Assembly: GCA_964591445.1 (NCBI GenBank)
Contig: CAZQAW010000002.1
Span: 3,394-67,393, forward strand
Direction: 5' to 3'
From: an uncultured Candidatus Saccharibacteria bacterium
Lineage (GTDB): Bacteria; Patescibacteriota; Minisyncoccia; Phycocordibacterales; UBA9973
Length of the DNA stretch: 64,000 nt
Below are positions 8,531 through 64,000 of this stretch, in pieces. Each line of letters opens with the position of its first letter. Positions within the stretch are counted from its first letter, which is position 1. A program made the position numbers and the translations under genes. Below the pieces are notes generated by a model, which had not been told where the DNA came from, made no database searches, and saw only the letters and a list, made by a program, of their open reading frames with translations.

Positions 8531-8554
8531 TCGCAATTATGCTATAATTCTCCT

Positions 8555-12085: not shown

Positions 12086-12146
12086 AAAGGCCATCGGCAT
12101 GAAGCGTAATGAAAATTAAGCTCTATACCGATGGCCTTTTTTCTTT
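12086..12146. terminator. Long hairpin AAAGGCCATCGG...CCGATGGCCTTTTTTC (12-bp stem, ~30-nt loop) with a T-tract on the plus strand.
   Basis: It lies immediately 3' of the holA stop on the minus strand. In plus orientation it could also terminate a transcript from the 280-nt non-coding region upstream. Confidence 0.5.
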
Positions 12147-13372: not shown

Positions 13373-13389
13373 ACTACAATCGTATCATA

Positions 13390-15807: not shown

Positions 15808-15826
15808 ATAGGCTTAGTATAGCATT

Positions 15827-16294
15827 TTAAGAGATCTCAATCTCGCGAATAGATTCTTCTTTGTGAGACAAGTTTACCTTGATTGCATCAGACGGAATGA
15901 GTCCTGGAACCTGTTCTGGCCATTCGATCAGAATAAGATTTTTTGGATCAGACATGATTTCTTGCCAGCCGAGTTTTTCTAATTCTGTTTTGGAGCTTAA
16001 GCGGTATGCATCTATATGGATGAGTTTTGTGAATTGCCCCCTCTCCTGGCTAGGAGAGGGTTGGGGTGAGGTTGGTGGAAGATTATAGAACTTCATAATT
16101 ACAAACGTTGGTGAGACGAGATGTTCTTTTACGCCAAGCTCTCGCGCGATTGCTTGCGTGAACGTTGTCTTCCCTGCGCCAAGGTCTCCGGAAAGTGCAA
16201 CAACAGCCGCGCCGGTAAACCGGCGCGGCTTCACTGCTTCCAGCACTTCTTCCGCAACAGATTGTATTTCAGGTAGCTCAAAACTTCGTTTCAT
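15827..16294 (-). CDS. tsaE: tRNA threonylcarbamoyladenosine biosynthesis ATPase TsaE (YjeE), carrying an in-frame insertion of about 14 aa.
   Basis: P-loop GDLGAGKTTF, SPTF and HIDAYRL motifs. Between SPTF and HIDAYRL lies NLPPTSPQPSPSQERGQ, which is encoded by the palindromic repeat at 16027-16065. Confidence 0.8.
   Translation of the reverse strand: MKRSFELPEIQSVAEEVLEAVKPRRFTGAAVVALSGDLGAGKTTFTQAIARELGVKEHLVSPTFVIMKFYNLPPTSPQPSPSQERGQFTKLIHIDAYRLSSKTELEKLGWQEIMSDPKNLILIEWPEQVPGLIPSDAIKVNLSHKEESIREIEIS
16027..16065. repeat. GC-rich palindrome element, copy b: CCCCCTCTCCTGGCTAGGAGAGGG TTGGGGTGAGGTTGG, inserted in frame in tsaE.
   Basis: Same inner palindrome and GGGGTGAGG module as at 8470-8530 and 43757-43870. 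It translates as PTSPQPSPSQERGQ on the minus strand. Confidence 0.6.
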
Positions 16295-16314
16295 GCGGAG
16301 ACTTTAGCATAAAG

Positions 16315-16428
16315 AAAAGAAAGAAACTAGTTGGAAAAGCCTTGCGGAGGCTGTCGAGCCGAGCAGGCTACATTTTCAGCAGAAAATGATAGCTTGCTTT
16401 TCCAGCTAGTTTCTTTCTTTTCCGACAC
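16315..16428 (+). ncRNA. Candidate structured RNA or repeat element, copy 1. The conserved ~50-nt core CCTTGCGGAGGCTGTCGAGCCGAGCAGGCTACATTTTCAGCAGAAAAT sits inside a 24-bp flanking stem.
   Basis: The core is shared with 36935-36985 and, in reverse complement, with 63229-63284. The flanking arms AAGAAAGAAACTAGTTGGAAAAGC / GCTTTTCCAGCTAGTTTCTTTCTT pair with a single U-G wobble, which holds only in the plus-strand RNA. An intrinsic terminator follows at 16434-16457. Confidence 0.45.
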
Positions 16429-16433
16429 AAAAC

Positions 16434-16457
16434 AAAAGCCCCCGGTAGGGGGCTTTT
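16434..16457. terminator. Terminator hairpin AAAAGCCCCC-GGTA-GGGGGCTTTTGT.
   Basis: GC stem with flanking A and T runs. It lies 3' of the large minus-strand gene and 3' of the plus-oriented element. Confidence 0.6.
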
Positions 16458-16484
16458 GTACATGCGACTGCGCTTCTTTCACTT

Positions 16485-19292
16485 TTAGTGAGGCAAATGT
16501 GTTGGAGCTACCTGCTTCACAAATCGTGTCGGAGCGAATACTTTTCGTCCAAGCATAATAAGAAGAAGGACAATGAGAATGAATGCGAGCCAGCCGATCA
16601 AAGTATTCGGGAAGAGGCCATCTGCACCAAAGAGTGCAAGTGCTCCCAAGAATCCTACAGCTGATCCGGCGATCGTGTCGATAGAGTATGCAACAACGTC
16701 ATCTTGGATATTGCTTCCATAGACGTAAGCTGCTGTTCCTGAAGCAACAAGGGGGTCACCATTCTTTGCAGTTGTGCGAACGATACCATCGACGAAGAAA
16801 GATTCTTCTTCCTGAGGGTTGAGTGTTCCCACTTCTACCGTAACAGTATTGTCTTTCAAAGAATATTCACCGCGAGTGTTTCGAACGTCTGTAACATTTT
16901 CTGGAAGTTGGATGTGCACGACTACATCACGAAGCGTTGTTCGCTTTGCAATATTTTTGTAAGTAACAACGTAGTCGATCGCATCGCCTGGTCGGTATGT
17001 TTCATAACGACTTTCAATAGTAAGCGTCATGAGAGGAACATTACCTGAACCACCGCCACCTGTGTAGATGATGATCGGATCAGTATTTGTCTGAGCCTGA
17101 GTTCGGAATGACAAGATGTTTCCATAGACTGTTCCGCTTGTGCCATTTGAAGCAACTGCCCGGAAGTAGTACGTCGTATTTGGAGCAAGGTTATAGATCG
17201 GAGCAGAAAAAGACGTATTACCATATACAGTCTGAGCTGTAGTTGTTGCACCAAGAGAGTATGTGCTTCCCCACTGGAACCATACAGATGCTGTGGTAGA
17301 ACCACTGCAATTACCACCAAGAGGACATACGTAATTCATTCCAGAAACATATCCATTCAAGTTTGCACTTGTCTGGCCAACACCAGAAGCAACAAGAGTT
17401 GAAACTGAAAGTTGAGTTTGCTGAACGTAGTTGTATTCGTCGTTGTCTGTTGGGTACGCACAACCTGGATCGTTCATGTCTACATAACCATCGTAGTCGT
17501 TGTCGCGTCCGTCATTACATGCGTAAGTTTGTGGAGGATTGATGATCTGGTTGTATTCATCATTGTCTTTCGGAGATGAACAACCAGGGTCATTCATGTC
17601 GACATACCCATCGCCATCGTTATCAAGGTTGTCGCTACATGCGTATGTCTGTTGATACACAGTTCGCATATTTACAACAAGTGTTCGAGTTTGGATCGCT
17701 CCGCCCAAGATAGATGCAGAAAGTGTAAATGTTGTTGTTCCGTAAATCGGATGTGTGTCGATAGATCCGCTTGTTCCAACTGGTCCAAGAGATGAGATCG
17801 AAACATTTGTACAATCATTTGTTGTCGCCCATGTAAGAGTCGAAATACCGCCGCTGTTTACTGTTGAAGGTGAAGCGTTGAAGCTTGTAATCGCACAGTA
17901 TCCTTGTGAAGGCTGTTGTGTAACATACACTGTGACTGTTTTTGTCTGAGTTGGACCAGGTCCGTCTGCAGTCAAAGTAAATGGTGTTGTCGCGATCAAA
18001 TTTCCTGTTGAAGTTGAACCAGAAAGCATTTGTGAACCAAGATTTGTAATAGAAACTTGATCACAGTTTGTTGTTGTCCAGTACAAGTTTGCAGGGCTAC
18101 CATATGCCGTAGTTGAAGGTGCCGCAGAAAAACTATTGATAACACAGTTCTGAACTTGTGGCTGCTTCACTGTCACCGTAACAGTACGAGTGATAGTTGT
18201 ACCGTTGTTACAGTTTACTGTAAGTGTATACGTTGTTGTATTTGTCGGAGCAACTGTGACAGATCCAGAAAGTCCGGGATGGCTGTTGCCTGAAGTTGGA
18301 GAAATACTTACGCTTGAAGCGTTTGTTGTATTCCAAGAGAGTGTAGTCGTGTCACCTTTGTTGATGTTTGTAGATGATGCAGAAAATGTCGCAGTACATG
18401 CTGGAGGATTTCCTACATTGATACTTACAGTGTCATAAAGTGTGTTGCCGTTTTGACAGTGTACAGTAAGAGTATATGTTTGGTCGTGTTGAAGAGCGCC
18501 AGTCGGCTTTGTTCCAGATGGAACAGTTGCATTACCAAGGCCTGAAATGCTAGCGCTTGTAGCACCAGTTACTGACCATGAAAGTGTAGACGAACCGTTG
18601 TAAGAAACGTTTGTCGGACTTGCATTGAAGTAGTTGATGTTACATGCAGCTGGAGGAGGTGTGTTACCTACTAGAAACTGCGCGCGAACCGTACCTTGGT
18701 GACAGAAAGTCTGGCTTGTCGGGCAAGTAGAATCCGGACCGACTGAGCCCATATTGAATCCTCCGCCAAAAATAGCTGCTGCGTCATTGGCAGAAAGCGG
18801 AGTTCCGTACGTAGAATGTTCAGCGTACCATACCGCAGAACCAGGAACATACGTAAGCGTCTGAGCCTGAGAACCATTGATACTTACTGATGCAGAACCT
18901 GACTGAGGACAGTTTGTACAGTTTGAAGCTGTTACTGAACCAAAGAATGTCTGACTATGAACTGCGCCTGTCGACTGAGGACTCATTCGCACAGTTGTAT
19001 TTTGTGCAGCTACAGGACCAGTGTTGTGATAGTAGACACGAACGGCAATGGTATCTCCTGGATCAGCAGACACAGAACCATACCAAGCCGAAGTTGAATT
19101 CGGATTGTTGGTGACGTTCATCACCTTGACCGTAGCGAGGTCGCCAGGGTTTGTGTTGAAATACGTAGTACTCTGTGCTTGAGCCATGCCAAAAAAAGCA
19201 AAGCCGACGGCAAGCGTTCCCAAGAATACGTATTTCTTTATATTATTGAAATAATTCATATACTTTTTCTTACTGTTTATAATTCTGTACAC
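16485..19292 (-). CDS. Large cell-surface adhesin-like protein: signal peptide, DUF11/CARDB-like N-domain, four tandem ~85-aa Ig-like repeats, two dockerin/TSP3-like Ca-binding repeats, fibronectin-III-like domains and a C-terminal TM anchor.
   Basis: Repeats such as NxSPxxVxxGxxTTLxWxTTNAxxVSIS...TYTLTVxCxNG occur four times. Two CxDxxDNDxDGYVDMNDPGC motifs are present. The C-terminus contains GLFPNTLIGWLAFILIVLLLIMLGRK. Confidence 0.65.
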   Translation of the reverse strand: MYRIINSKKKYMNYFNNIKKYVFLGTLAVGFAFFGMAQAQSTTYFNTNPGDLATVKVMNVTNNPNSTSAWYGSVSADPGDTIAVRVYYHNTGPVAAQNTTVRMSPQSTGAVHSQTFFGSVTASNCTNCPQSGSASVSINGSQAQTLTYVPGSAVWYAEHSTYGTPLSANDAAAIFGGGFNMGSVGPDSTCPTSQTFCHQGTVRAQFLVGNTPPPAACNINYFNASPTNVSYNGSSTLSWSVTGATSASISGLGNATVPSGTKPTGALQHDQTYTLTVHCQNGNTLYDTVSINVGNPPACTATFSASSTNINKGDTTTLSWNTTNASSVSISPTSGNSHPGLSGSVTVAPTNTTTYTLTVNCNNGTTITRTVTVTVKQPQVQNCVINSFSAAPSTTAYGSPANLYWTTTNCDQVSITNLGSQMLSGSTSTGNLIATTPFTLTADGPGPTQTKTVTVYVTQQPSQGYCAITSFNASPSTVNSGGISTLTWATTNDCTNVSISSLGPVGTSGSIDTHPIYGTTTFTLSASILGGAIQTRTLVVNMRTVYQQTYACSDNLDNDGDGYVDMNDPGCSSPKDNDEYNQIINPPQTYACNDGRDNDYDGYVDMNDPGCAYPTDNDEYNYVQQTQLSVSTLVASGVGQTSANLNGYVSGMNYVCPLGGNCSGSTTASVWFQWGSTYSLGATTTAQTVYGNTSFSAPIYNLAPNTTYYFRAVASNGTSGTVYGNILSFRTQAQTNTDPIIIYTGGGGSGNVPLMTLTIESRYETYRPGDAIDYVVTYKNIAKRTTLRDVVVHIQLPENVTDVRNTRGEYSLKDNTVTVEVGTLNPQEEESFFVDGIVRTTAKNGDPLVASGTAAYVYGSNIQDDVVAYSIDTIAGSAVGFLGALALFGADGLFPNTLIGWLAFILIVLLLIMLGRKVFAPTRFVKQVAPTHLPH

Positions 19293-28451: not shown

Positions 28452-28538
28452 ACTTTAGCATAAATGACGCTTTTTGTCTTTTAGATAAAATAAAAACCCC
28501 TCCTTAATACGGAGAGGTCTTTTAAAATTTTAACCTTC

Positions 28539-33463: not shown

Positions 33464-34813
33464 TTATTTAAACAGAGTTCTCAACTGTTCAAGCTCTTGG
33501 ATAAGTCCCGGGTCGGTTTTTAAATCTTTCTTGATCTTTAAACACGAGTGAATGACGGTCGTATGGTCTTTACCACCCAATTTTTGCCCAATAAGAGGGT
33601 ATGAGACATTGAAATCCTCTCGAAGGATATACATAACAAGCTGGCGTGCCTTTACTATCTCCTTTCGGCGTGTCTTGTCATAAATAGCTTCTTCTTCAAG
33701 GTTAAAGAATTCAGCAATAGACTTCACCACATCTTTAATTGCGACATTTTTCTTTGGGCGAATGTTATTTTTGATAAGATTTTTAACTTCAGCCAATGTA
33801 ATTTCGCGATTTTTGAGTTGAGATTGTACTAAAATAGAATTTAAGCTCCCTTCAAGCTCGCGAATACTGCCTTGGATCGATGCCGCCAGGTGTTCAAGTA
33901 CTTCGTCTGTTATTGAAACAGCTGATTCCTTGAGTTTCTCTTTGAGAATTGCCAAACGAGATTCGTATTCCGGCTGGTTGATATCAACGATCATACCCGC
34001 AGAGAAGCGAGACTTGAGACGGTCTTCAAGGCCTGGAATGTAGTTTGGGTGTTTATCTGAAGAAAAGATAATTTGCTTGTTGTTTTCGTATAAAGTATTG
34101 AATAAATGGAATAATTCTTCTTGTGTTTTCTCTTTTGTGGAGATGAATTGGATATCGTCCATAATAAGCACATCGTATTTACGGTACTTTTCTTTAAAAC
34201 TATTTGGTTTGTTGTTTTGGACGGAGTTGATGTAATCGATAGCGAACTTTTCAAGAGTAATATAATGCACTTTTTTCTCTGGATAGCGAGCTTTAATAGC
34301 ATTTCCTATTCCTTGAATAAGGTGTGTTTTTCCGAGTCCTGTATCTCCATAGATAAAAAACGGGTTATACGAGGTTCCAGGGCGGTTTATGATGGCTTGT
34401 GAAGCAGCATGAGCGAGTTCATTGAATGGTCCGACGACAAATGAATTTAAATCATAGCGTGGGTTTAAGTTGTCTTCTTTGTTGATATATAAATCTTGAA
34501 GTGGAAGTTCTCTGTGACTAAAAACACTTTTATCTTCAAAGTGTTCTTGCGCTTTTTGGCGAGCATCGTGTTTGCTAATGATGTACTCTACCCCGCGAGT
34601 ATCCTCCGCAAATGTCATGAGTGTTTTTAAAATAGACTTGTGAAATTTTTTATAGAGCCAGTCTTTAACGAATTCATTCGGAACGCCGATGTAGATGGTA
34701 CCAGCTTCCTGTTTTGCAATAGAGGTGTTCTTGAACCATGTACTAAAGTTGGCTTTAGACATGTCTTTTTCAAGTTCAAGTAAACAATTGTCCCACAGTT
34801 CTTTGGTATCCAT
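33464..34813 (-). CDS. dnaA: Chromosomal replication initiator DnaA. The start was refined to the internal ATG (MDTKELWDNCLLELEKDMSKANFSTWFKNTS).
   Basis: Walker A GDTGLGKTHL, sensor and box motifs, and a C-terminal DNA-binding helix. The ORF-track start is a GTG that lies inside a perfect DnaA box. Confidence 0.9.
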   Translation of the reverse strand: MDTKELWDNCLLELEKDMSKANFSTWFKNTSIAKQEAGTIYIGVPNEFVKDWLYKKFHKSILKTLMTFAEDTRGVEYIISKHDARQKAQEHFEDKSVFSHRELPLQDLYINKEDNLNPRYDLNSFVVGPFNELAHAASQAIINRPGTSYNPFFIYGDTGLGKTHLIQGIGNAIKARYPEKKVHYITLEKFAIDYINSVQNNKPNSFKEKYRKYDVLIMDDIQFISTKEKTQEELFHLFNTLYENNKQIIFSSDKHPNYIPGLEDRLKSRFSAGMIVDINQPEYESRLAILKEKLKESAVSITDEVLEHLAASIQGSIRELEGSLNSILVQSQLKNREITLAEVKNLIKNNIRPKKNVAIKDVVKSIAEFFNLEEEAIYDKTRRKEIVKARQLVMYILREDFNVSYPLIGQKLGGKDHTTVIHSCLKIKKDLKTDPGLIQELEQLRTLFK

Positions 34814-34982
34814 ATGAAGTACACCTATTATAGACTTTAAAAGTATATTTGCAAAATTATCCACAGCTTAATTAACATGTGGATAAGGTGTGGAAAGATA
34901 TGAATAACTTTTCTCACCCCTCGCTTCGCAAGGGAGGAAAATTGAGCTTGTAAAATAAAATATTTTATTGTATACTCCCCTC
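34814..34982. promoter_or_regulatory. Region upstream of dnaA with perfect DnaA boxes TTATCCACA (34857-34865) and TGTGGATAA (34878-34886), plus TGTGGAAAG (34889-34897). It also contains the rpmH promoter.
   Basis: Exact matches to the TTATNCACA consensus in both orientations, 10 nt apart. Classic rpmH/dnaA divergent arrangement. Confidence 0.55.
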
Positions 34983-35117
34983 ATGTCATTCACATATAAC
35001 CCGAAAAAGCGAAAACGAGCCACAACTCACGGCTTTCTTGTTCGAAGCAAAACCAAGAACGGCAAGAACGTCTTGAAGCGCCGCCGAGCTCAGGGCCGAA
35101 AGCGAATAGCTCTCTAA
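34983..35117 (+). CDS. rpmH: 50S ribosomal protein L34 (44 aa). Not in the ORF track because it is shorter than 60 aa.
   Basis: My own translation: [44 protein letters not shown]. The stop lies 3 nt before rnpA. Confidence 0.85.
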
Positions 35118-35120
35118 ACT

Positions 35121-35453
35121 ATGCTCCCAAAGTCCAAGCGCGCCACATCTTCTCATATAGATGAACTCGCAAAAGGTAAAAAGACCCTTTCGGGGGCTTT
35201 TTTTACTATGTCGGTGAGATTTGTAAAAAACCCTTTAGAAATAAGCCGATTTGCGGTTATTGTCTCTAAAAAAGTGGCTAAAACAGCTGTTTCTCGCAAT
35301 AAGCTCCGCCGACAAGCCTATTCCGCCTTGGAAAATAAGGATATTTTTCTTCCCGCTGGGATGATCTGCGCTTTCTATGCTAAAAAAGAGGCTGAAAAAG
35401 CACAATACGCTGATTTATCAAGGGATATTTCAGAACTTATATCAAAAATATGA
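35121..35453 (+). CDS. rnpA: RNase P protein component.
   Basis: Basic protein with an RNR-like motif (SRNKLRRQAY). Positioned between rpmH and yidD. Confidence 0.85.
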   Translation: MLPKSKRATSSHIDELAKGKKTLSGAFFTMSVRFVKNPLEISRFAVIVSKKVAKTAVSRNKLRRQAYSALENKDIFLPAGMICAFYAKKEAEKAQYADLSRDISELISKI

Positions 35454-35665
35454 ACAAAATAGCTATATTTTTTATCAAATTCTATAAAATAATCCTTCGG
35501 CCATTCTTAGGTAATCAAAAAATCTGTGGATTCTACCCTACTTGTTCCGAATACGGTCTCCAAGCCTTTCAAAAATACAACTTTTTCAAAGCAAGCTATC
35601 TCACTATCCGAAGAATCCTTCGTTGCCATCCTTGGCAGAAAAATCATTTTGATCCACTGCCATAA
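35450..35665 (+). CDS. yidD: Membrane protein insertion efficiency factor YidD.
   Basis: FIKFYKIILRPFLG..CGFYPTCSEYGLQA is the conserved YidD motif. Overlaps rnpA by 4 nt (ATGA). Confidence 0.85.
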   Translation: MNKIAIFFIKFYKIILRPFLGNQKICGFYPTCSEYGLQAFQKYNFFKASYLTIRRILRCHPWQKNHFDPLP

Positions 35666-35704
35666 ATATTTTGAATAGTTCTCTTTTTAGAGTACAATAG
35701 GGAA

Positions 35705-36439
35705 ATGTTAACCTCACTTTGGACAGCTGTGCTCTATAAGCCACTTTATAACGCTCTCATTGCCATTATCGAGTTTATCCCGGGCCACAATGTTGCGGTC
35801 GCGGTGATTTTACTTACTATTATCGTCAAACTCATCCTCTTCCCTCTCACTCGCAAATCAATCATCAGCCAGGCAAAATTGAAAGAACTTGAACCGGAAA
35901 TCGCGCGATTGAAAGAACAATTCCCTGACAAACAAGAACAAGCAAAAAAGACGATGGAATTGTACAAGCAATACAACGTCAATCCATTCTCTGGTTGTTT
36001 ACTCATCTTGATCCAAATCCCGATTATCTTTGCGCTCTACTACGTGTTTTACAAAGGACTCAATTTTAATCCCGACATGCTCTACTCGTTCGTTGAATTT
36101 CCAAAAATCATGAGTATGGAATTTTTGGGAATTATGATGCAGGGCAAAAGTATTGTGCTCGCCGTGCTCGCTGGTGTTACACAATTTGTCCAAGCATATC
36201 TTTCTACTACAATGCCGACAAAGAATCCGAATCAGACTGGCTTTGCCGCTTCATTTGCACAAAGCATGAATATCCAAGTTCGTTACGTACTCCCAGTGAT
36301 CGTGGCAATCATCGCTTATCAGATTTCTGCTGCAGTTGCACTTTACTGGGTCACAAGCAACCTCTTTACTATTGGGCAAGAATTCCTCATCCGCCGCAAA
36401 CTAGGGTCCAAGAAAGTATCTGCTGTAACTCTCAACTAA
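35705..36439 (+). CDS. yidC: YidC/Oxa1-family membrane protein insertase (short form).
   Basis: Five-TM core carrying the conserved YidC helices. Confidence 0.85.
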   Translation: MLTSLWTAVLYKPLYNALIAIIEFIPGHNVAVAVILLTIIVKLILFPLTRKSIISQAKLKELEPEIARLKEQFPDKQEQAKKTMELYKQYNVNPFSGCLLILIQIPIIFALYYVFYKGLNFNPDMLYSFVEFPKIMSMEFLGIMMQGKSIVLAVLAGVTQFVQAYLSTTMPTKNPNQTGFAASFAQSMNIQVRYVLPVIVAIIAYQISAAVALYWVTSNLFTIGQEFLIRRKLGSKKVSAVTLN

Positions 36440-36440
36440 C

Positions 36441-36905
36441 ATGAACAGAAGCGATATAGAAAAAAGCATACACGACCTTTTCCGGGCAACGAATCTCACT
36501 ATCGACGAAGTGGTGGTGAAAGATGATGAAGACACAGGCATGGTATGGTTTTCTATTCGTACGAGCGAGCCGGAACTTTTTATCGGCCGAAATGGTGAAA
36601 CACTTCAAGCTTGGAACCATATCGTTCGCAAAATGATCGAGAAACAACTTACCAGAGCGGAAACCTTTACTGAAATCTTGATCGATGTAAACGACTATCA
36701 AAAGAAAAAAGTAGACAGTTTGAAAACAATAGCTCATATGATGGCTGAACGCGCACGATTCTTCAAATCAAGCGTCGATGTCGAGCCGATGTCCCCTTAT
36801 GAAAGAAAGATTATTCACTCATATCTTGCAAATAAAAACGATGTGACAACAGAGTCTGCGGGCGAAGGACGAGACAGGCATGTGGTGATCAAATACGTTG
36901 GTTAG
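36441..36905 (+). CDS. jag: Jag/KhpB-like RNA-binding protein (KH plus R3H domains).
   Basis: The C-terminal ERKIIHSYLANKNDVTTESAGEGRDRHVVIK is an R3H motif. Typical gene order after yidC. Confidence 0.8.
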   Translation: MNRSDIEKSIHDLFRATNLTIDEVVVKDDEDTGMVWFSIRTSEPELFIGRNGETLQAWNHIVRKMIEKQLTRAETFTEILIDVNDYQKKKVDSLKTIAHMMAERARFFKSSVDVEPMSPYERKIIHSYLANKNDVTTESAGEGRDRHVVIKYVG

Positions 36906-37019
36906 CCGCACAAAAGAAAAAGCATTCCGGAGACCTTGCGCAGGCTGTCGAGCCGAGCAGAGCAAATTTTCAGCAGAAAATTATGTCGTGTCTCCGGAAT
37001 GCTTTTTCTTTTGTGCGGC
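36905..37019 (+). ncRNA. Candidate structured RNA or repeat element, copy 2. The conserved core sits inside a perfect 30-bp stem that exactly fills the spacer between convergent jag and the gene at 37023.
   Basis: Core ACCTTGCGCAGGCTGTCGAGCCGAGCAGAGCAAATTTTCAGCAGAAAAT. Arms GCCGCACAAAAGAAAAAGCATTCCGGAGAC / GTCTCCGGAATGCTTTTTCTTTTGTGCGGC. Confidence 0.45.
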
Positions 37020-37022
37020 TTG

Positions 37023-43756: not shown

Positions 43757-43870
43757 GGTGTGTATTCCTCCTCTCCTAGCCAGGAGAGGACTACGGCTTG
43801 CCGAGTGGTGAGGTTGTTTGTTCCTGAACTCAACCTCACCCCGAACCTTCGGTCGACCCTCTCCTAGCCA
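43757..43870. repeat. GC-rich nested-palindrome element, copy c (composite): CCTCTCCTAGCCAGGAGAGG ... GTGGTGAGG ... CCTCACCCC GAACCTTCGGTCGA CCCTCTCCTAGCCAGGAGAGGG.
   Basis: Contains the same outer (CCTCACCCC/GGTGAGG), linker (CCGnACnTTCGnTC) and inner palindrome modules as copy a. Lies in the intergenic region between the virB4 N-domain gene and the prgI-like gene. Confidence 0.6.
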
Positions 43871-43879
43871 GGAGAGGGT

Positions 43880-44290
43880 TTATTTCTTTTTCACGTCCAA
43901 CACGTCGAGCGACCATGCCATGTCTTTGAGCTTGCTTTCGGAGAGTTTTGGTACGTATGAAGATGTTGGAATCGAAGATGCAGCTTCTTTGTTTATCTCA
44001 GACTGATCTCTCGGTATTTTCTTCCAGACGTAGAGTTTGCTCTTGCCGATGTATGCGATGTATGACTGCAAGATGTCAATAAAAGGCTTGTCGTTGACTT
44101 TGTAAAATGTGAGCGCAAGTGAAAGTGCGGCAATAGGAAGCATGATAAGCACAGCAAAAAAGAACGGCAAGATTTTGTAGATGACGAAACATATTCCCGC
44201 ACCGCCGGCCAAATACAAGAATTGTCGGAACGAGAACGGCCCAAAGATCTTGTCTTCAACGTCGATGAATTGTGGAACTTTGAATTGCAT
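43880..44290 (-). CDS. PrgI/VirB3-like small membrane protein of type IV secretion systems.
   Basis: MQFKVPQFIDVEDKIFGPFSFRQFLYLAGGAGICFVIY plus a second TM helix: the PrgI-family N-terminal pattern (x.FGP.t.RQF.yl). Confidence 0.5.
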   Translation of the reverse strand: MQFKVPQFIDVEDKIFGPFSFRQFLYLAGGAGICFVIYKILPFFFAVLIMLPIAALSLALTFYKVNDKPFIDILQSYIAYIGKSKLYVWKKIPRDQSEINKEAASSIPTSSYVPKLSESKLKDMAWSLDVLDVKKK

Positions 44291-48098: not shown

Positions 48099-48196
48099 CG
48101 TGGACAGAATACAACTTTAGTATATCATTTACTCCTTAAGAAAATACGAAAAAACAGTGCAAAACTTTTGTTTTGCACTGTTTTTCTTTGTTTTAT

Positions 48197-50470
48197 TTAG
48201 TAGACACCCAAGTTGCTTTCAAGTATTGGTACACCAAATGCGCTGTTGATGTTGATGACATCGGTAACGTGAATTTCGGCGTAGGCTCCGTTTGGCAATC
48301 CCCCTCCGTAGAACACGTCATCCAAGAATACACTGGTTGTTGGTATAAGTGACGCTGCCTGTTCTTGGACAGAAAGCAAGTCTTTTGGATACGATTTGCG
48401 TTGTGTTGGTCCGGTGTATGTGGTGCCGACGTTTGAGCCAGTCTTGTCGATACCGTCCACTTCTTTGCGGCAGCGGTAAAAGAGGTCTACTGCGTCTCGT
48501 GTGTCAAACTCTATCTGGTATATCTCAGCTTCCAAGTTCTTTACATCGTCTCCTGTTACCAAATTTGAGGTCATGGCTTGGAATGTGCGCACCAGTTTTT
48601 CGTATTCGGTATTGTTAGGGTCAGTTTGGTACGCGGCAAGGGCCTGTGGAAGTTGGCTGTTGATGTAGGTAAGCTTGCTGATATTTGATTTCATCTGCCC
48701 GATCTGCGCTTCGATTTCGGTGTATTCGTTCTGATAAGTCGGAAGTGAATTGTATAACTGGTTGATCTCTGCTGTTACTGTCGGCATGTTGAATACATTG
48801 AACTTATCCTTCATGATATCGATAAAGCCTTTGAGTTTGACCGGCGGATCATTCTCGCTCATGCCGCCTTCGATGATACGTTGGACGAGAGATATGGTTC
48901 GTTCTTTTGACATTGCGCTGTTTGTATCAACACCGGTGTATGCTCGGAACAAAACAGTAAAGAATGAAGCGATACCACTTGCTTTTTGTATTTCTGTCAA
49001 AGCCGTTGCTTCGTTTTGGTATACCGTATCTTGCCAGTTTGCGGCTGGGCCGGGCAAGCAGAAGTCTGCTTTGTAAATTGCCGGAAGCATCTGGTTGATC
49101 GCGCCAGTTTTTGTAAGCTTGTTTGCCCCATACGTATTCCCCGGTCCAAGACGATCCAAGTAATCTTGCTGGTCTTGTATAATTCCCGGAAGTCCAGTGT
49201 TGATATCAAACTCATTTGCTGGATGGTTCCAATGTGTTTGTGATACACCAGACCCTCCGTTTGAAGATGATCCTGTGTTGCTGCCTGAACCTCCGTTGTA
49301 TTGATAAGGATTTGTGCCAGAGCTTGAAGTATCTGCAAGCGAGCTCAAACCTTTTTGCATCATCTGGTTCAAAAGCGCGTCAAATATTGCCGTAAGCGAT
49401 GCATCCAAATCTTCACTGTTGATCAAAGAGTCTGTAGGAATATCGAGCGCGGTGTTGAGCTGATGTGAAAGCACTCCACCCGGTGTGCGAGTTTCTTCAT
49501 AAGTACAAGTATATTTACGCAAACGTTCTTTTGCCGCATTAATGTCTGCTTGATTATAAGATGCTCCATCAAATGGTTCATAACTTCCGGTATTGTTAGA
49601 AGCCTCGGGTGTGGGGAGGCCTGCAATAATCATGTCCTCGCTCTTGTCCCAGTCTGCCGGTGGTTCTTCGTAGTCGCTTGGCTCTACACATACTTTCAAA
49701 GAAAGAAATCCAAAGTTGTTTTGAAGATCTGTTTTTATTTCCTGTATCCTGTTTTGTCCATAACCGGCAATTCGACGAGAAAATTCGTCGCCGGTAATGA
49801 TAGTTGCGCCGATCTGGTTGTTCTGCGGAAGTTGGGTCATTGCAAGCCATCCGTCCCAACCCCCGACGGCAAAGTCGGCTTGGAATTGTTGTGCTTGCGC
49901 CGAACCAATAACTTTGTCTAAACTATATTGCGCGTACATGGAAAAATTTGCTTGAAGTGAGGCAATCAAGTTGCGTGCAATATCTTTACCGAAAGGAGAA
50001 ACGATCTGTATTTGCGCCGTCAAACTCATGAGTTCTTCGTCAGCGATACTTTTGAAAAATCTACCGGGGTTCTGTACGAATGCTGGGGAACCTTTGAATC
50101 CAGTGTTAATCCAGTTCACTGTCGCTTGAGTGATCTTTCGGAGCAATGTTTGTGCGGCAGCACGAGCAATTTTTTTCAAACAAGTTTCTTTGTTTTCAAG
50201 TGCTTTGGTCGCTGGGTCGTTGGTGTCTACTGCCCCACTTGTCAAACCTTCAAGCTTGCTTGACCCCAAGTTAAGAAGTTTGTTCAATCCGCATCCGATA
50301 CCAGCGCCAAGTATTGGGCCTGCACCTTGGAAGATGCTTGCTCCGCCGGAGAACTGCGCTTCAACCTTGCTTACTTCAATGATGAACAAGCCTTGTCCAA
50401 GTACTCCGACAAAAACGATGACTGAAAGTATTTTTTGTAGCCAGGACTTCATACGTTTGTAGTATATCAC
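48197..50470 (-). CDS. Large membrane-anchored extracytoplasmic protein (757 aa), function unknown.
   Basis: N-terminal TM (ILSVIVFVGVLGQGLFII) with the remainder predicted to be extracytoplasmic. Overlaps the next gene by 4 nt. Confidence 0.4.
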   Translation of the reverse strand: MIYYKRMKSWLQKILSVIVFVGVLGQGLFIIEVSKVEAQFSGGASIFQGAGPILGAGIGCGLNKLLNLGSSKLEGLTSGAVDTNDPATKALENKETCLKKIARAAAQTLLRKITQATVNWINTGFKGSPAFVQNPGRFFKSIADEELMSLTAQIQIVSPFGKDIARNLIASLQANFSMYAQYSLDKVIGSAQAQQFQADFAVGGWDGWLAMTQLPQNNQIGATIITGDEFSRRIAGYGQNRIQEIKTDLQNNFGFLSLKVCVEPSDYEEPPADWDKSEDMIIAGLPTPEASNNTGSYEPFDGASYNQADINAAKERLRKYTCTYEETRTPGGVLSHQLNTALDIPTDSLINSEDLDASLTAIFDALLNQMMQKGLSSLADTSSSGTNPYQYNGGSGSNTGSSSNGGSGVSQTHWNHPANEFDINTGLPGIIQDQQDYLDRLGPGNTYGANKLTKTGAINQMLPAIYKADFCLPGPAANWQDTVYQNEATALTEIQKASGIASFFTVLFRAYTGVDTNSAMSKERTISLVQRIIEGGMSENDPPVKLKGFIDIMKDKFNVFNMPTVTAEINQLYNSLPTYQNEYTEIEAQIGQMKSNISKLTYINSQLPQALAAYQTDPNNTEYEKLVRTFQAMTSNLVTGDDVKNLEAEIYQIEFDTRDAVDLFYRCRKEVDGIDKTGSNVGTTYTGPTQRKSYPKDLLSVQEQAASLIPTTSVFLDDVFYGGGLPNGAYAEIHVTDVININSAFGVPILESNLGVY

Positions 50471-62012: not shown

Positions 62013-63170
62013 GTGAATTTACAACCCTCACAAGACTCTCCTGGTCCCGAACGATTAGCATCGGTTGGTCCAAAGACGAAAAAAGCCTTATTTTACAAGG
62101 GTACATATGCCCAAGCTTCTTTTTTGTTGCTTGCGACTTTTGCCCTCGTTTTCCCTCCGATGGTCTCTCAGGCTAGTCTTTTCTCATATATTGTGGGAGA
62201 AAAAGCAGATGCGGCTGACCAAGCTATAGTAAAAAATGCTCCTAACTCCCAAACTATCGCTCTTTTGGAAGCAAGCCCTCGCATTGACCCTCTTTCGACA
62301 GAGTCAAATGACACTACTATATATAACAGCTCGGCCCTTGCTCCGGAAACTGGCCCGCTTGGTACGGTTGCCGATGTGGCGCTCGCTCCCGAGACAGATC
62401 AGATCAGCCTTTACGTCGTAAAATCTGGCGACACTATTTCTTCTATTGCCAAAATGTTCGGCGTGAGTACAAGTACGATCCGCTGGGCGAACGACCTTGC
62501 TTCCGGACAAAGTGTTGCTGAAGGCGCTGTTCTCACTATCCTCCCTATTTCCGGCGTTGAACATACCATTACCAAAAACGACACTTTGAAGAAAATCGCC
62601 GCACGATATGGCGCAGATATGGATGACGTTGCGTCTTTCAATGGTATTACCGAAGACACCGTGCTTGAAATCGGTTCGACTATTATTGTGCCAGACGGCG
62701 AAGTTGCTCCGGTAGAAACCAAGACAGTGAAACCGACTAAAACTGCCGACACAAAGGCCAAGAAACTTGCGACTGCAAAAGTGTTGCAAGCGAATTTGCC
62801 TACAGTTGAAGGCTTCATCCGGCCGATCATCGGTGGACGCAAGTCTCAAGGTTTGCACGACAGATACGCCATCGACTTGGCTGCGCCGATCGGAACTCCG
62901 ATCATGGCTTCAGCTGGAGGAACTGTGCTTCTTGCAAAAATGGGTTACAACGGCGGCTATGGAAACTATGTTGTTGTTAAACACGACAATGGAACACAAA
63001 CTTTGTACGCGCACATGAGCAAGATCGGCACAACTGCCGGCGCGACTGTACAACAAGGCGAAGTGATCGGCTACGTAGGTTCAACAGGACGTTCAACTGG
63101 TCCGCACGTCCATTTCGAAGTTCGAGGTGCTAAAAATCCTGGAGTTACTCCTGGAGTTTGGGAAAGATAA
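62013..63170 (+). CDS. LysM-domain peptidoglycan M23 metallo-endopeptidase.
   Basis: Two LysM repeats (YVVKSGDTISSIAKMFGVSTSTIRWAN; ITKNDTLKKIAARYGADMDDVASFNG) and an M23 core (HDRYAIDLAAPIGTPI...VVVKHDNGTQTLYAHM...GSTGRSTGPHVHFEV). Confidence 0.85.
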   Translation: MNLQPSQDSPGPERLASVGPKTKKALFYKGTYAQASFLLLATFALVFPPMVSQASLFSYIVGEKADAADQAIVKNAPNSQTIALLEASPRIDPLSTESNDTTIYNSSALAPETGPLGTVADVALAPETDQISLYVVKSGDTISSIAKMFGVSTSTIRWANDLASGQSVAEGAVLTILPISGVEHTITKNDTLKKIAARYGADMDDVASFNGITEDTVLEIGSTIIVPDGEVAPVETKTVKPTKTADTKAKKLATAKVLQANLPTVEGFIRPIIGGRKSQGLHDRYAIDLAAPIGTPIMASAGGTVLLAKMGYNGGYGNYVVVKHDNGTQTLYAHMSKIGTTAGATVQQGEVIGYVGSTGRSTGPHVHFEVRGAKNPGVTPGVWER

Positions 63171-63194
63171 AAAAGCGCAGTGATGCGCTTTTTT
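63169..63194. terminator. Bidirectional terminator AAAAAAGCGCA-GTGA-TGCGCTTTTTT.
   Basis: Hairpin with flanking A and T tracts after the M23 peptidase gene. Confidence 0.6.
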
Positions 63195-63198
63195 AATA

Positions 63199-63313
63199 CC
63201 AAAACAATAAAACAAACATTCTGAAAGCAAGCTATAATTTTCTGCTGAAAATTTAGCCTGCTCGGCTCGACAGCCTCCGCAAGGCTTTCATAATATTTGT
63301 TTTATTGTTTTGG
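63199..63313 (-). ncRNA. Candidate structured RNA or repeat element, copy 3, in minus orientation. The core sits inside a ~30-bp stem whose outer arm overlaps the last four codons of the comM-like gene.
   Basis: Reverse complement of 63229-63284: AAGCCTTGCGGAGGCTGTCGAGCCGAGCAGGCTAAATTTTCAGCAGAAAATTATAGC. Arms CCAAAACAATAAAACAAACATTCTGAAAGC / GCTTTCATAATATTTGTTTTATTGTTTTGG have two mismatches, one of which is a G-U wobble only on the minus-strand RNA. Confidence 0.45.
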
Positions 63314-64000
63314 TCGATATTGCAACGCTTCCAAAACATGCTGTGTGGTTACATTTTCGCTTTCTGCCAAGTCTGCAATGGTGCGCGCGAGTTTGATGAC
63401 TCGGTGGTATGCTCGCGCAGACAGCCCGAGTTTTTCGGCTGTCGTATTTAAAAGTTTTTTCGTTTCTTCGGAGAGCGGAACATAACTTGCGAGGTCTCGT
63501 GTATTCATCTCTGTATTTGTGGTGATGCTACGCGGATGATTTTTAAATCTTTTTCTCTGTATTGCTCTTGCGCGTTCGACGCGTTTTTTTATTTCAGCAC
63601 TTCCTTCGCCTTCTCGTGTCGTAGTGCTCAACTTTTCATAATCCACTTCGCCGACGTGCGTCCAAATATCGACGCGGTCCATGATCGGCCCGGAAATTTT
63701 TCTTTGGTATCGCGCAATATCATTTTGTCGACAGACGCATTCTTTGTGAAGCGCGCCGCGGTTGCCGCATGGACACGGGTTCATCGCTGCGACCAAAATA
63801 AATCTTGATGGAAAAACGACCGAACCTTTGGCGCGAGAAACAGTGACCACTTTGTCTTCCAAAGGTTGTCGCAAACTTTCAATCACACGTTTTTCAAATT
63901 CTGGAAATTCATCGAGAAACAAAACTCCATGATGTGCGAGCGTGACTTCGCCAGGTTTTGGAAAGGTGCCACCGCCAATCATCGAAACGTACGATGCGGT
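63302..64000 (-). CDS. YifB/ComM-family Mg-chelatase-like AAA+ ATPase. Partial: the N-terminus lies beyond the window end.
   Basis: HHGVLFLDEFPEF (Walker B/sensor), RFILVAAMNPCPCG, and a C-terminal Mg_chelatase_C-like region (ARAYHRVIKLARTIADLAE). Confidence 0.8.
   Translation of the reverse strand, partial: TASYVSMIGGGTFPKPGEVTLAHHGVLFLDEFPEFEKRVIESLRQPLEDKVVTVSRAKGSVVFPSRFILVAAMNPCPCGNRGALHKECVCRQNDIARYQRKISGPIMDRVDIWTHVGEVDYEKLSTTTREGEGSAEIKKRVERARAIQRKRFKNHPRSITTNTEMNTRDLASYVPLSEETKKLLNTTAEKLGLSARAYHRVIKLARTIADLAESENVTTQHVLEALQYRPKQ

Follow-up and report, generated by a model that had tools for sequence, protein, structure and literature searches.

A putative mobile hairpin element of Patescibacteria, with a conserved core and copy-specific arms, upstream of tsaE

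What is the long hairpin that stands between tsaE and the large gene upstream of it? We analysed a stretch of 64,000 nucleotides (the window) in which a plus-oriented structured element lies between the start of a minus-strand tsaE gene and the stop of a minus-strand ORF of 935 aa. A sequence-only reading of this DNA had taken the element for an independent small RNA with its own terminator. Sequence and fold bear out the layout that it described: the minus-strand gene tsaE has its start codon at 16292-16294 (Pfam TsaE match, 4e-32), the stop of the 935-aa ORF is at 16485-16487, and both neighbours lie on the strand opposite to the element, which is not the 3' UTR of a co-directional gene. The label 'adhesin' given to the 935-aa protein finds no backing in Pfam, a search of which gave no match for this protein.

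The hairpin and two further copies in the window

The element (copy 1) is 109 bases long and lies in the slot between tsaE and the large upstream gene. Folded as RNA, the segment 16312-16460 forms a three-way junction of a long stem (P1) and two smaller hairpins (P2 and P3).

16314..16422, plus strand: copy 1, whole hairpin (sequence, RNA fold, covariance-model score)
16314..16340, plus strand: 5' arm of P1, A/purine-rich and copy-specific (arm comparison)
16341..16395, plus strand: conserved core, comprising the junction, P2 and P3 (fold, covariation)
16343-16365, plus strand: P2, with loop GUCG and internal loop GGA/GA (RNA fold)
16366-16394, plus strand: P3, with loop AGCA (RNA fold)
16396..16422, plus strand: 3' arm of P1, T-rich (sequence)
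16432..16459, no strand assigned: bidirectional intrinsic terminator with A-tract, GC stem and T-tract, attributed to the 935-aa minus-strand gene (scan, relatives)
16301..16309, minus strand: extended -10 of tsaE, TGCTAAAGT, 6 nt before the ATG (promoter-motif search)

The 27 bp of P1 comprise 26 Watson-Crick pairs and one U-G pair, and enclose the 55-nt core. That the stem holds a single U-G wobble had been read correctly from the letters; the positions assigned to it (16335 and 16408) are both A, and the sole wobble is T16331-G16405. The minimum free energy of 16312-16460, with the adjacent terminator included, is -84.6 kcal/mol, against -38.6 +/- 4.1 for shuffles (z-score -11.2, 200 dinucleotide shuffles). 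Against a covariance model built from the family, copy 1 scores 80.6 bits (E about 1e-19). Copy 1 is far beyond chance.

The window contains three copies in total, spaced 20-26 kb apart among housekeeping genes, and a covariance-model search with filters off identified no others in its 64,000 nt. Their cores are near-identical (97% between copies 1 and 3), and their 27-31 bp arms share no sequence. The plus orientation of copy 1 is set by comparison with the other two.

36904..37020, plus strand: copy 2, with 31-bp perfect arms, filling exactly the gap between the jag stop and the stop of a convergent gene (sequence, fold, model)
63198..63314, minus strand: copy 3 (sequence, fold, covariance model)
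63169..63194, no strand assigned: bidirectional terminator adjoining copy 3 (sequence, fold)

The neighbours of copy 2 are jag (R3H) and a convergent 533-aa gene, while the 5' arm of copy 3 overlaps the final codons of a Mg-chelatase/ComM-like gene. The core of copy 2 is 100% identical to a core at locus L038 (3629-3696), whose 3' arm no longer pairs. This orthologue of the intact L034 copy thus presents a broken stem beside a perfect core. We also observed two long imperfect hairpins in the window, at 48132-48203 and 12086-12139 (34-nt and 25-nt arms, 4-nt loops), that have no core and may be ordinary long terminators or element relics.

A family of folded strands in Patescibacteria

We searched species-representative genomes with a degenerate pattern of the core, and then metagenomes with the pattern followed by a covariance model. 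The pattern identified 26 true loci in species-representative genomes. All 26 belong to Patescibacteria, and their groups include Paceibacteria, Nomurabacteria, Kaiserbacteria, Saccharibacteria and RAAC4 OD1; the remaining 19 pattern matches were chance occurrences in GC-rich genomes. The metagenome search added about 40 copies, bringing the total to 60 unique copies. Homologues of the Jag protein encoded in the window carry the names Parcubacteria or Paceibacterota.

Every copy has a long P1, usually of 20-40 bp. In an alignment of 59 distinct cores, pairing holds in 94.7% of cells and double changes occur at 19 of the 21 pairs, three P2 base pairs being uninformative for covariation as they were fixed by the search pattern. 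Covariation at this level was reached by 0 of 500 shuffles, and registers slid along the alignment came nowhere close to it. Unpaired core nucleotides are kept as well: those of the internal loop (GCA/GA) and of the two hairpin loops, GUCG and AGCA. Across classes of the superphylum, both sequence and covariation show the core to be conserved; the degree of sequence conservation is inflated, because the search pattern fixed parts of it.

The hairpin family is apparently new to Rfam and to the literature. At the gathering threshold, Rfam returned only three tRNAs in the window; over 16250-16500 the top-scoring model, a miRNA-precursor hairpin, reached 31 bits where the threshold is 70, a score that reflects the long stem only. 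Copy 1 matches no Rfam family at gathering or E-value thresholds. K-turns, SRP helix 8, the hammerhead and other ribozyme cores were compared by eye and rejected, as their motifs do not fit and their Rfam models gave no match. Viral contigs and phage records yielded chance matches or none, and we found no description of the family in the literature on structured RNAs of the CPR, on CPR repeats or on the core string. Two loci carry copies head to head, with 5' ends abutting in L103 (1277-1396 on the minus strand and 1397-1517 on the plus strand; 80 versus 41 bits) or 41 nt apart in L031 (2583-2665 on the minus strand and 2707-2823 on the plus strand; 68 versus 36 bits).

The two strands of the element are not equivalent. 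With G-T counted as a mismatch, the P1 pairs of 60 copies comprise 1464 Watson-Crick, 48 G-T and 10 A-C pairs. After homologous arms are collapsed, G-T still exceeds A-C by 35 to 10 (p = 2.5e-4), with a weaker bias in the outermost stem (9 versus 6). The minimum free energy is lower on the sense strand in 58 of 60 copies, so that the plus-strand preference already noticed for copy 1 has the same polarity throughout the family. The fold is evidently selected on one strand only, which for copy 1 is the plus strand. Because pairs covary and the strands are asymmetric (G-T over A-C), the family is a structured single-stranded nucleic acid, RNA or ssDNA alike by sequence.

Insertion slots, host genes and arms

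The genome represented by the window has a promoter signature, TGnTAnnnT, which precedes 18 ORFs (80 aa or longer), 5-8 nt ahead of their start codons. Genes bearing it include tsaE, polA and the gene after polA, and example sites from the motif search are 16301-16309(-), 15816-15824(-), 13379-13387(-), 28452-28460(-) and 8540-8548(+). A signature this close to start codons suggests that mRNAs are leaderless and that most genes have their own promoter; the tsaE mRNA is accordingly predicted to be leaderless. The small-RNA proposal called for a promoter upstream of copy 1, and neither search points to one: TGnTAnnnT occurs neither on the plus strand between 15000 and 16330 nor in the 60 nt that precede copies 1, 2 and 3, and a promoter scan at copy 1 gave no sigma-70-like site. 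Upstream of P1 in 48 intergenic copies, -10-like hexamers are not enriched (17 versus 12 expected in the sense direction, 13 versus 9 in the antisense direction). As an intrinsic terminator the hairpin gives a mixed picture: P1 is not followed by a T-run, but its own 3' arm is T-rich. Over the 48 intergenic copies, the 8 nt beyond the stem contain 2.6-2.9 T in either direction, which is no T-run.

Syntenic tsaE contigs of relatives, reached through TsaE homologues, reveal the history of the site. In L067 (TsaE 86%) the layout is that of copy 1 and the 5' arm is identical. In L066/L135 (79%) the gene order is the same and the tsaE -10 (TGCTAAATT), the terminator and its flank are kept, with the slot occupied by about 115 nt of unrelated short GC-rich hairpins that have no covariance-model match. 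In L139 (60%) the site is empty: terminator and flank are again kept, and the terminator directly abuts the tsaE promoter (-10 TGCTACAGT). The terminator (AAAAGCCCCCGGTAGGGGGCTTTT) is real at 16434-16457, where the sequence-only reading had placed it, and is not the element's own. The terminator scan places it on the minus strand, and its retention where the element is absent argues that it belongs to the upstream gene and is older than the element. The sequence-only reading had itself proposed synteny as a check on its small RNA, and the outcome goes against it, with copy 1 shared by L067 only, unrelated sequence in L066 and an empty site in L139. These comparisons indicate that copy 1 is a lineage-specific insertion into a slot between the older terminator and the tsaE promoter, which forms the slot's other edge.

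The same holds at two other sites. A copy stands directly after the polA stop in L066, L068, L135 and L136, where L139 has a different long-arm element and the window an empty site.

13373..13389, no strand assigned: empty polA site, 17 nt from the polA stop to the next gene, containing that gene's promoter

At the jag site, L146 (Jag 97%) has the same arm as copy 2, the slot in L142 (81%) is taken by another element, whose perfect arms measure 27 bp and whose core is not the same, and L144 (68%) is empty, with no spacer and overlapping convergent genes. The tsaE, polA and jag sites have therefore each been seen filled, empty and differently filled, a pattern that implies rapid turnover and indicates that copies are gained and lost between close relatives.

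Other hairpins use these slots as well. In relatives, the slots after jag and polA are filled by elements whose arms are long and perfect (22-27 bp) but whose GC-rich core is another one (GGGTTAAGCG or GGGTGAAGCGC). Short GC-rich hairpins bearing a related GGGTGAGG motif cluster in the tsaE slot of L066.

L142, 3474-3566; L139, 7937-8020; L066, 4860-4985: elements with other GC-rich cores, or hairpin clusters

The occurrence of different families in the same slots suggests that several hairpin families compete for gene-end sites. In the window, the polA stop is only 2 nt from the promoter of the next gene. A second repeat family in the window consists of short GC-rich palindromes (CCCTCTCCTrGCyAGGAGAGGG plus GGTGAGGTTG..CAACCTCACC) at 43760-43885 and, inside tsaE, at 16039-16078. 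The tsaE palindrome is translated in frame as PPTSPQPSPSQERGQ and is absent, longer or different in the TsaE proteins of close relatives.

Among 38 classifiable intergenic copies, the commonest class (13) has both neighbours on the opposite strand, as copy 1 does; 12 lie between convergent genes, seven are sense between co-directional genes, and six lie between divergent genes. Orientation relative to host transcription is close to random. Copies occupy the short dispensable stretch that separates a stop codon or terminator from the leaderless promoter of the following gene. An all-against-all comparison of flanking ORFs identified no recurring neighbour gene or partner protein beyond orthologous synteny. 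Homology to L142/L144/L146 and L053 identifies a cluster of dnaA, rnpA, yidD, yidC and jag at 33464-36905, on the strength of which the window probably covers the region of the chromosomal origin; no clear switch is visible in the GC skew. We rejected a replication-linked orientation, because copies 2 (plus) and 3 (minus) are oppositely oriented although both are found to one side of dnaA; GC skew was uninformative.

The arms of P1 behave differently from the core. Conservation within sub-families extends to the inner arms, while each copy has outer arms of its own. Orthologous copies in truB differ in the outer stem by paired changes. The 5' arm of copy 1 is matched only by the orthologous L067 copy among the window and the other loci compared, and the arms of copies 1 and 2 are absent from the flanks, the empty sites, the rest of the window and the other loci compared. 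These results exclude arms copied from elsewhere in the window or loci. They also exclude insertion of a core into the loop of a pre-existing terminator at copies 1 and 2, as the empty sites of L139 and L144 hold neither arm. For copy 3, L066 and L078, native coding sequence seems to make up part of one arm, with its complement in the opposite arm. Intergenic arms are longer than in-ORF arms (median 31 versus 20 nt) and are A-rich on the 5' side and T-rich on the 3' side (A 649 versus T 479; 39 elements versus 17), an asymmetry that in-ORF copies lack. Copies 1-3 lack the conserved terminal inverted repeats of a MITE in the strict sense, their arms sharing nothing, and no target-site duplication accompanies them. 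A GAGCGA-like direct repeat does flank the in-ORF sub-family; counted as a duplication, it would break the reading frame. We identified no transposase or conserved terminal repeat for the family.

This in-ORF sub-family sits in frame and stop-free inside genes for TsaD, TruB and phosphoglucomutase (PGM_PMM), all confirmed by Pfam, with domains split by the insert. TsaD hosts carry one copy in L029 and two in L078. TruB is a host in L030 and L062, at the same site, and PGM_PMM in L050 (sense) and L075 (antisense), in the linker between domains I and II. The first insert in the L078 TsaD is not in L029; the second stands at the L029 insert position, where the junction fold is retained in proteins only 51% identical. 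The positions of the in-ORF copies indicate that they lie in permissive protein linkers. Variants of P2 alter the encoded residues (AVEP, GVGP, RVGA) and retain pairing, which argues that the nucleic acid, not the peptide, is under selection. A conserved peptide as the explanation of the core is ruled out by these variants.

Readings of the element and comparison with known systems

With dispersed copies and presence/absence polymorphism between close relatives, the family behaves as a mobile repeat in the broad sense. Copy 1 is probably an insertion of a structure-defined, non-autonomous mobile hairpin element of Patescibacteria. A conserved core of about 55-60 nt, with two small hairpins and a three-way junction, would cap a long stem of nearly free sequence. 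The moving machinery would recognise the core, presumably in the form of a folded single strand, given that selection on the fold is confined to one strand, and the inner stem would travel together with the core. The outer stem may be private to each lineage, having moved by cut-and-paste, or may be rewritten locally by intrastrand template switching; the latter route would account for copies that pair an arm of native coding sequence with an arm complementary to it. With about -60 kcal/mol, an A-rich 5' arm and a U-rich 3' arm, a transcribed hairpin would have its effect in cis, as a structure at transcript ends or for RNase III, and would not serve as a dedicated small-RNA gene.

Several observations weigh against mobility. 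No transposase, target-site duplication or conserved terminal repeat was identified, and the arms of copies 1 and 2 match neither their flanks nor other sequence compared. Selfish repeats would not usually keep near-identical cores in distant lineages, and this points to a function at host level, as do the one-strand selection and the pairing kept at the TsaD site shared by proteins 51% identical. A doubtful reading that keeps some chance of being right is that only the folded 55-nt core is inherited, with a perfect stem remade at each site by fold-back or template switching from RNA or ssDNA; in a related version, the core would be a conserved Patescibacteria small RNA freed from many host transcripts. 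To our knowledge, per-site stem synthesis of this kind has not been described for bacterial repeats.

It is unlikely that the family is a domesticated cis module at transcript ends, placed between genes that have leaderless promoters of their own and able, whichever way it faces, to act as terminator, insulator, 3'-end protector or RNase III site. Copies do fit precisely into the gap from a stop codon to the following promoter, or lie between convergent stops that have no other terminator (copy 2, and the L066 copy after polA), A-rich 5' and T-rich 3' arms occur in intergenic copies and not in in-ORF copies, and there is precedent in terminator-like repeats such as SPRITE (PMC10969869). Such a module would lack a U-tract after the hairpin in either direction, would be redundant at copies 1 and 3, which adjoin a canonical terminator, and would occupy sites that are dispensable in relatives; it accounts for neither the conserved core nor the one-strand selection. 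The independent small-RNA gene, with a plus-strand transcript of ~120-140 nt from just upstream of P1 to the terminator at 16434-16457, is weaker still and quite unlikely. It is consistent with selection of the fold on the plus (sense) strand, with a TAGCAT hexamer ending 4 nt before P1, and with the layout antisense to both neighbours being the commonest intergenic class. The symmetric terminator, with its A-tract and T-tract, could also stop plus-strand transcripts, and similar bidirectional terminators follow copy 3, L045 and L042b. All of this is outweighed by the missing extended -10 and promoter-like site at copy 1, the lack of -10 enrichment across the family, a terminator that is kept where the element is absent, a locus that is not conserved in relatives, and family members that also lie in ORFs and 3' UTRs.

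An RNA acting in trans is improbable. On that reading RNase III would cut the long stem and free a core of ~60-90 nt that binds a conserved Patescibacteria protein, resembling snoRNAs hosted in other genes or TIGR stem-loop units. Conservation of the core down to unpaired nucleotides and selection of the sense-strand fold are in its favour, and so are stems that vary yet always pair, as in TIGR stem-loop arrays (PMC12045711). Random orientation to host genes, however, implies that many copies are untranscribed; sites turn over rapidly, and there are no box C/D motifs, variable spacers, arrays or associated gene. A site that acts on one strand as ssDNA in replication or recombination, like an integron attC site or an sso-like priming site, is highly improbable. 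Its fold would be strand-specific and G-T-tolerant and its stem structure-defined and sequence-variable, as observed. The element nevertheless has no R''/R' boxes and no cassette array, copies lie inside ORFs, and the orientations of copies 2 (plus) and 3 (minus), on the same side of dnaA-rnpA-yidC-jag, do not follow the fork.

Patescibacteria genomes are tiny and tightly packed and are thought to be poor in repetitive DNA. The mobile hairpin that we favour would be a superphylum-wide, structure-defined element that hops between gene ends and also sits in frame inside essential TsaD, TruB and phosphoglucomutase genes. It would provide a new marker of genome dynamics in Patescibacteria and a source of protein insertions, and its one-strand selection may offer a handle on RNA- or ssDNA-based mobility or processing machinery. 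For annotation, the case is a warning that a stable, covarying intergenic hairpin need not be a small-RNA gene.

Several known systems share features with the element. REP/REPIN repeats with their RAYT transposases, and MITEs such as Correia, ERIC and SPRITE, are likewise short, non-coding, hairpin-forming intergenic repeats with presence/absence polymorphism. Some repeats of the REP/REPIN or MITE type function as terminators or as sites for RNase III. A GTAG or CGTC tag marks REPs, and MITEs are characterised by conserved terminal inverted repeats and target-site duplications. In the element, by contrast, arm ends vary, neither tag is present, and neither conserved terminal inverted repeats nor target-site duplications are seen. 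Integron attC sites resemble it in being structure-recognised, strand-specific and possibly branched in the apical part. They have conserved outer R/L boxes and a variable centre, whereas the element has the opposite arrangement; the attC boxes R'' (RYYYAAC) and R' (GTTRRRY) are absent from its arm ends, and the window contains no cassette array or integrase.

Quasipalindrome correction by template switching during replication (the Ripley model, Lovett laboratory) turns imperfect inverted repeats into perfect ones and can copy one flank onto the other. Copies with native coding sequence in one arm are consistent with it. As a mutational process and not an element family, it is invoked here only as a possible explanation of arm growth.

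TIGR stem-loop units of phages and parasitic bacteria form tandem arrays beside tas, with box C/D motifs and two variable spacers (PMC12045711). In both systems, which occur in CPR-type organisms, variable yet palindromic stems flank a unit with conserved motifs (PMC12045711); the element differs in being dispersed and in having a core and loops that are conserved and base-paired. Rickettsia palindromic elements (RPE) are palindromic repeats of ~100-150 nt in the reduced genomes of these host-dependent bacteria; their hallmark is to lie in frame in unrelated housekeeping genes, where the inserts are read through as peptide insertions (PMC10969869). The element is likewise palindromic, dispersed in the reduced genome of a host-dependent bacterium and in frame in TsaD, TruB and PGM_PMM. 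The likeness described here is one of behaviour; the taxa do not overlap and the host phylum is different, and the element has a conserved centre, non-conserved arms, a superphylum-wide spread and a covarying fold on one strand. We describe the element as RPE-, REPIN- and MITE-like in behaviour, and as set apart from these repeats by its conserved centre, free arms, one-strand selection and spread across the superphylum.
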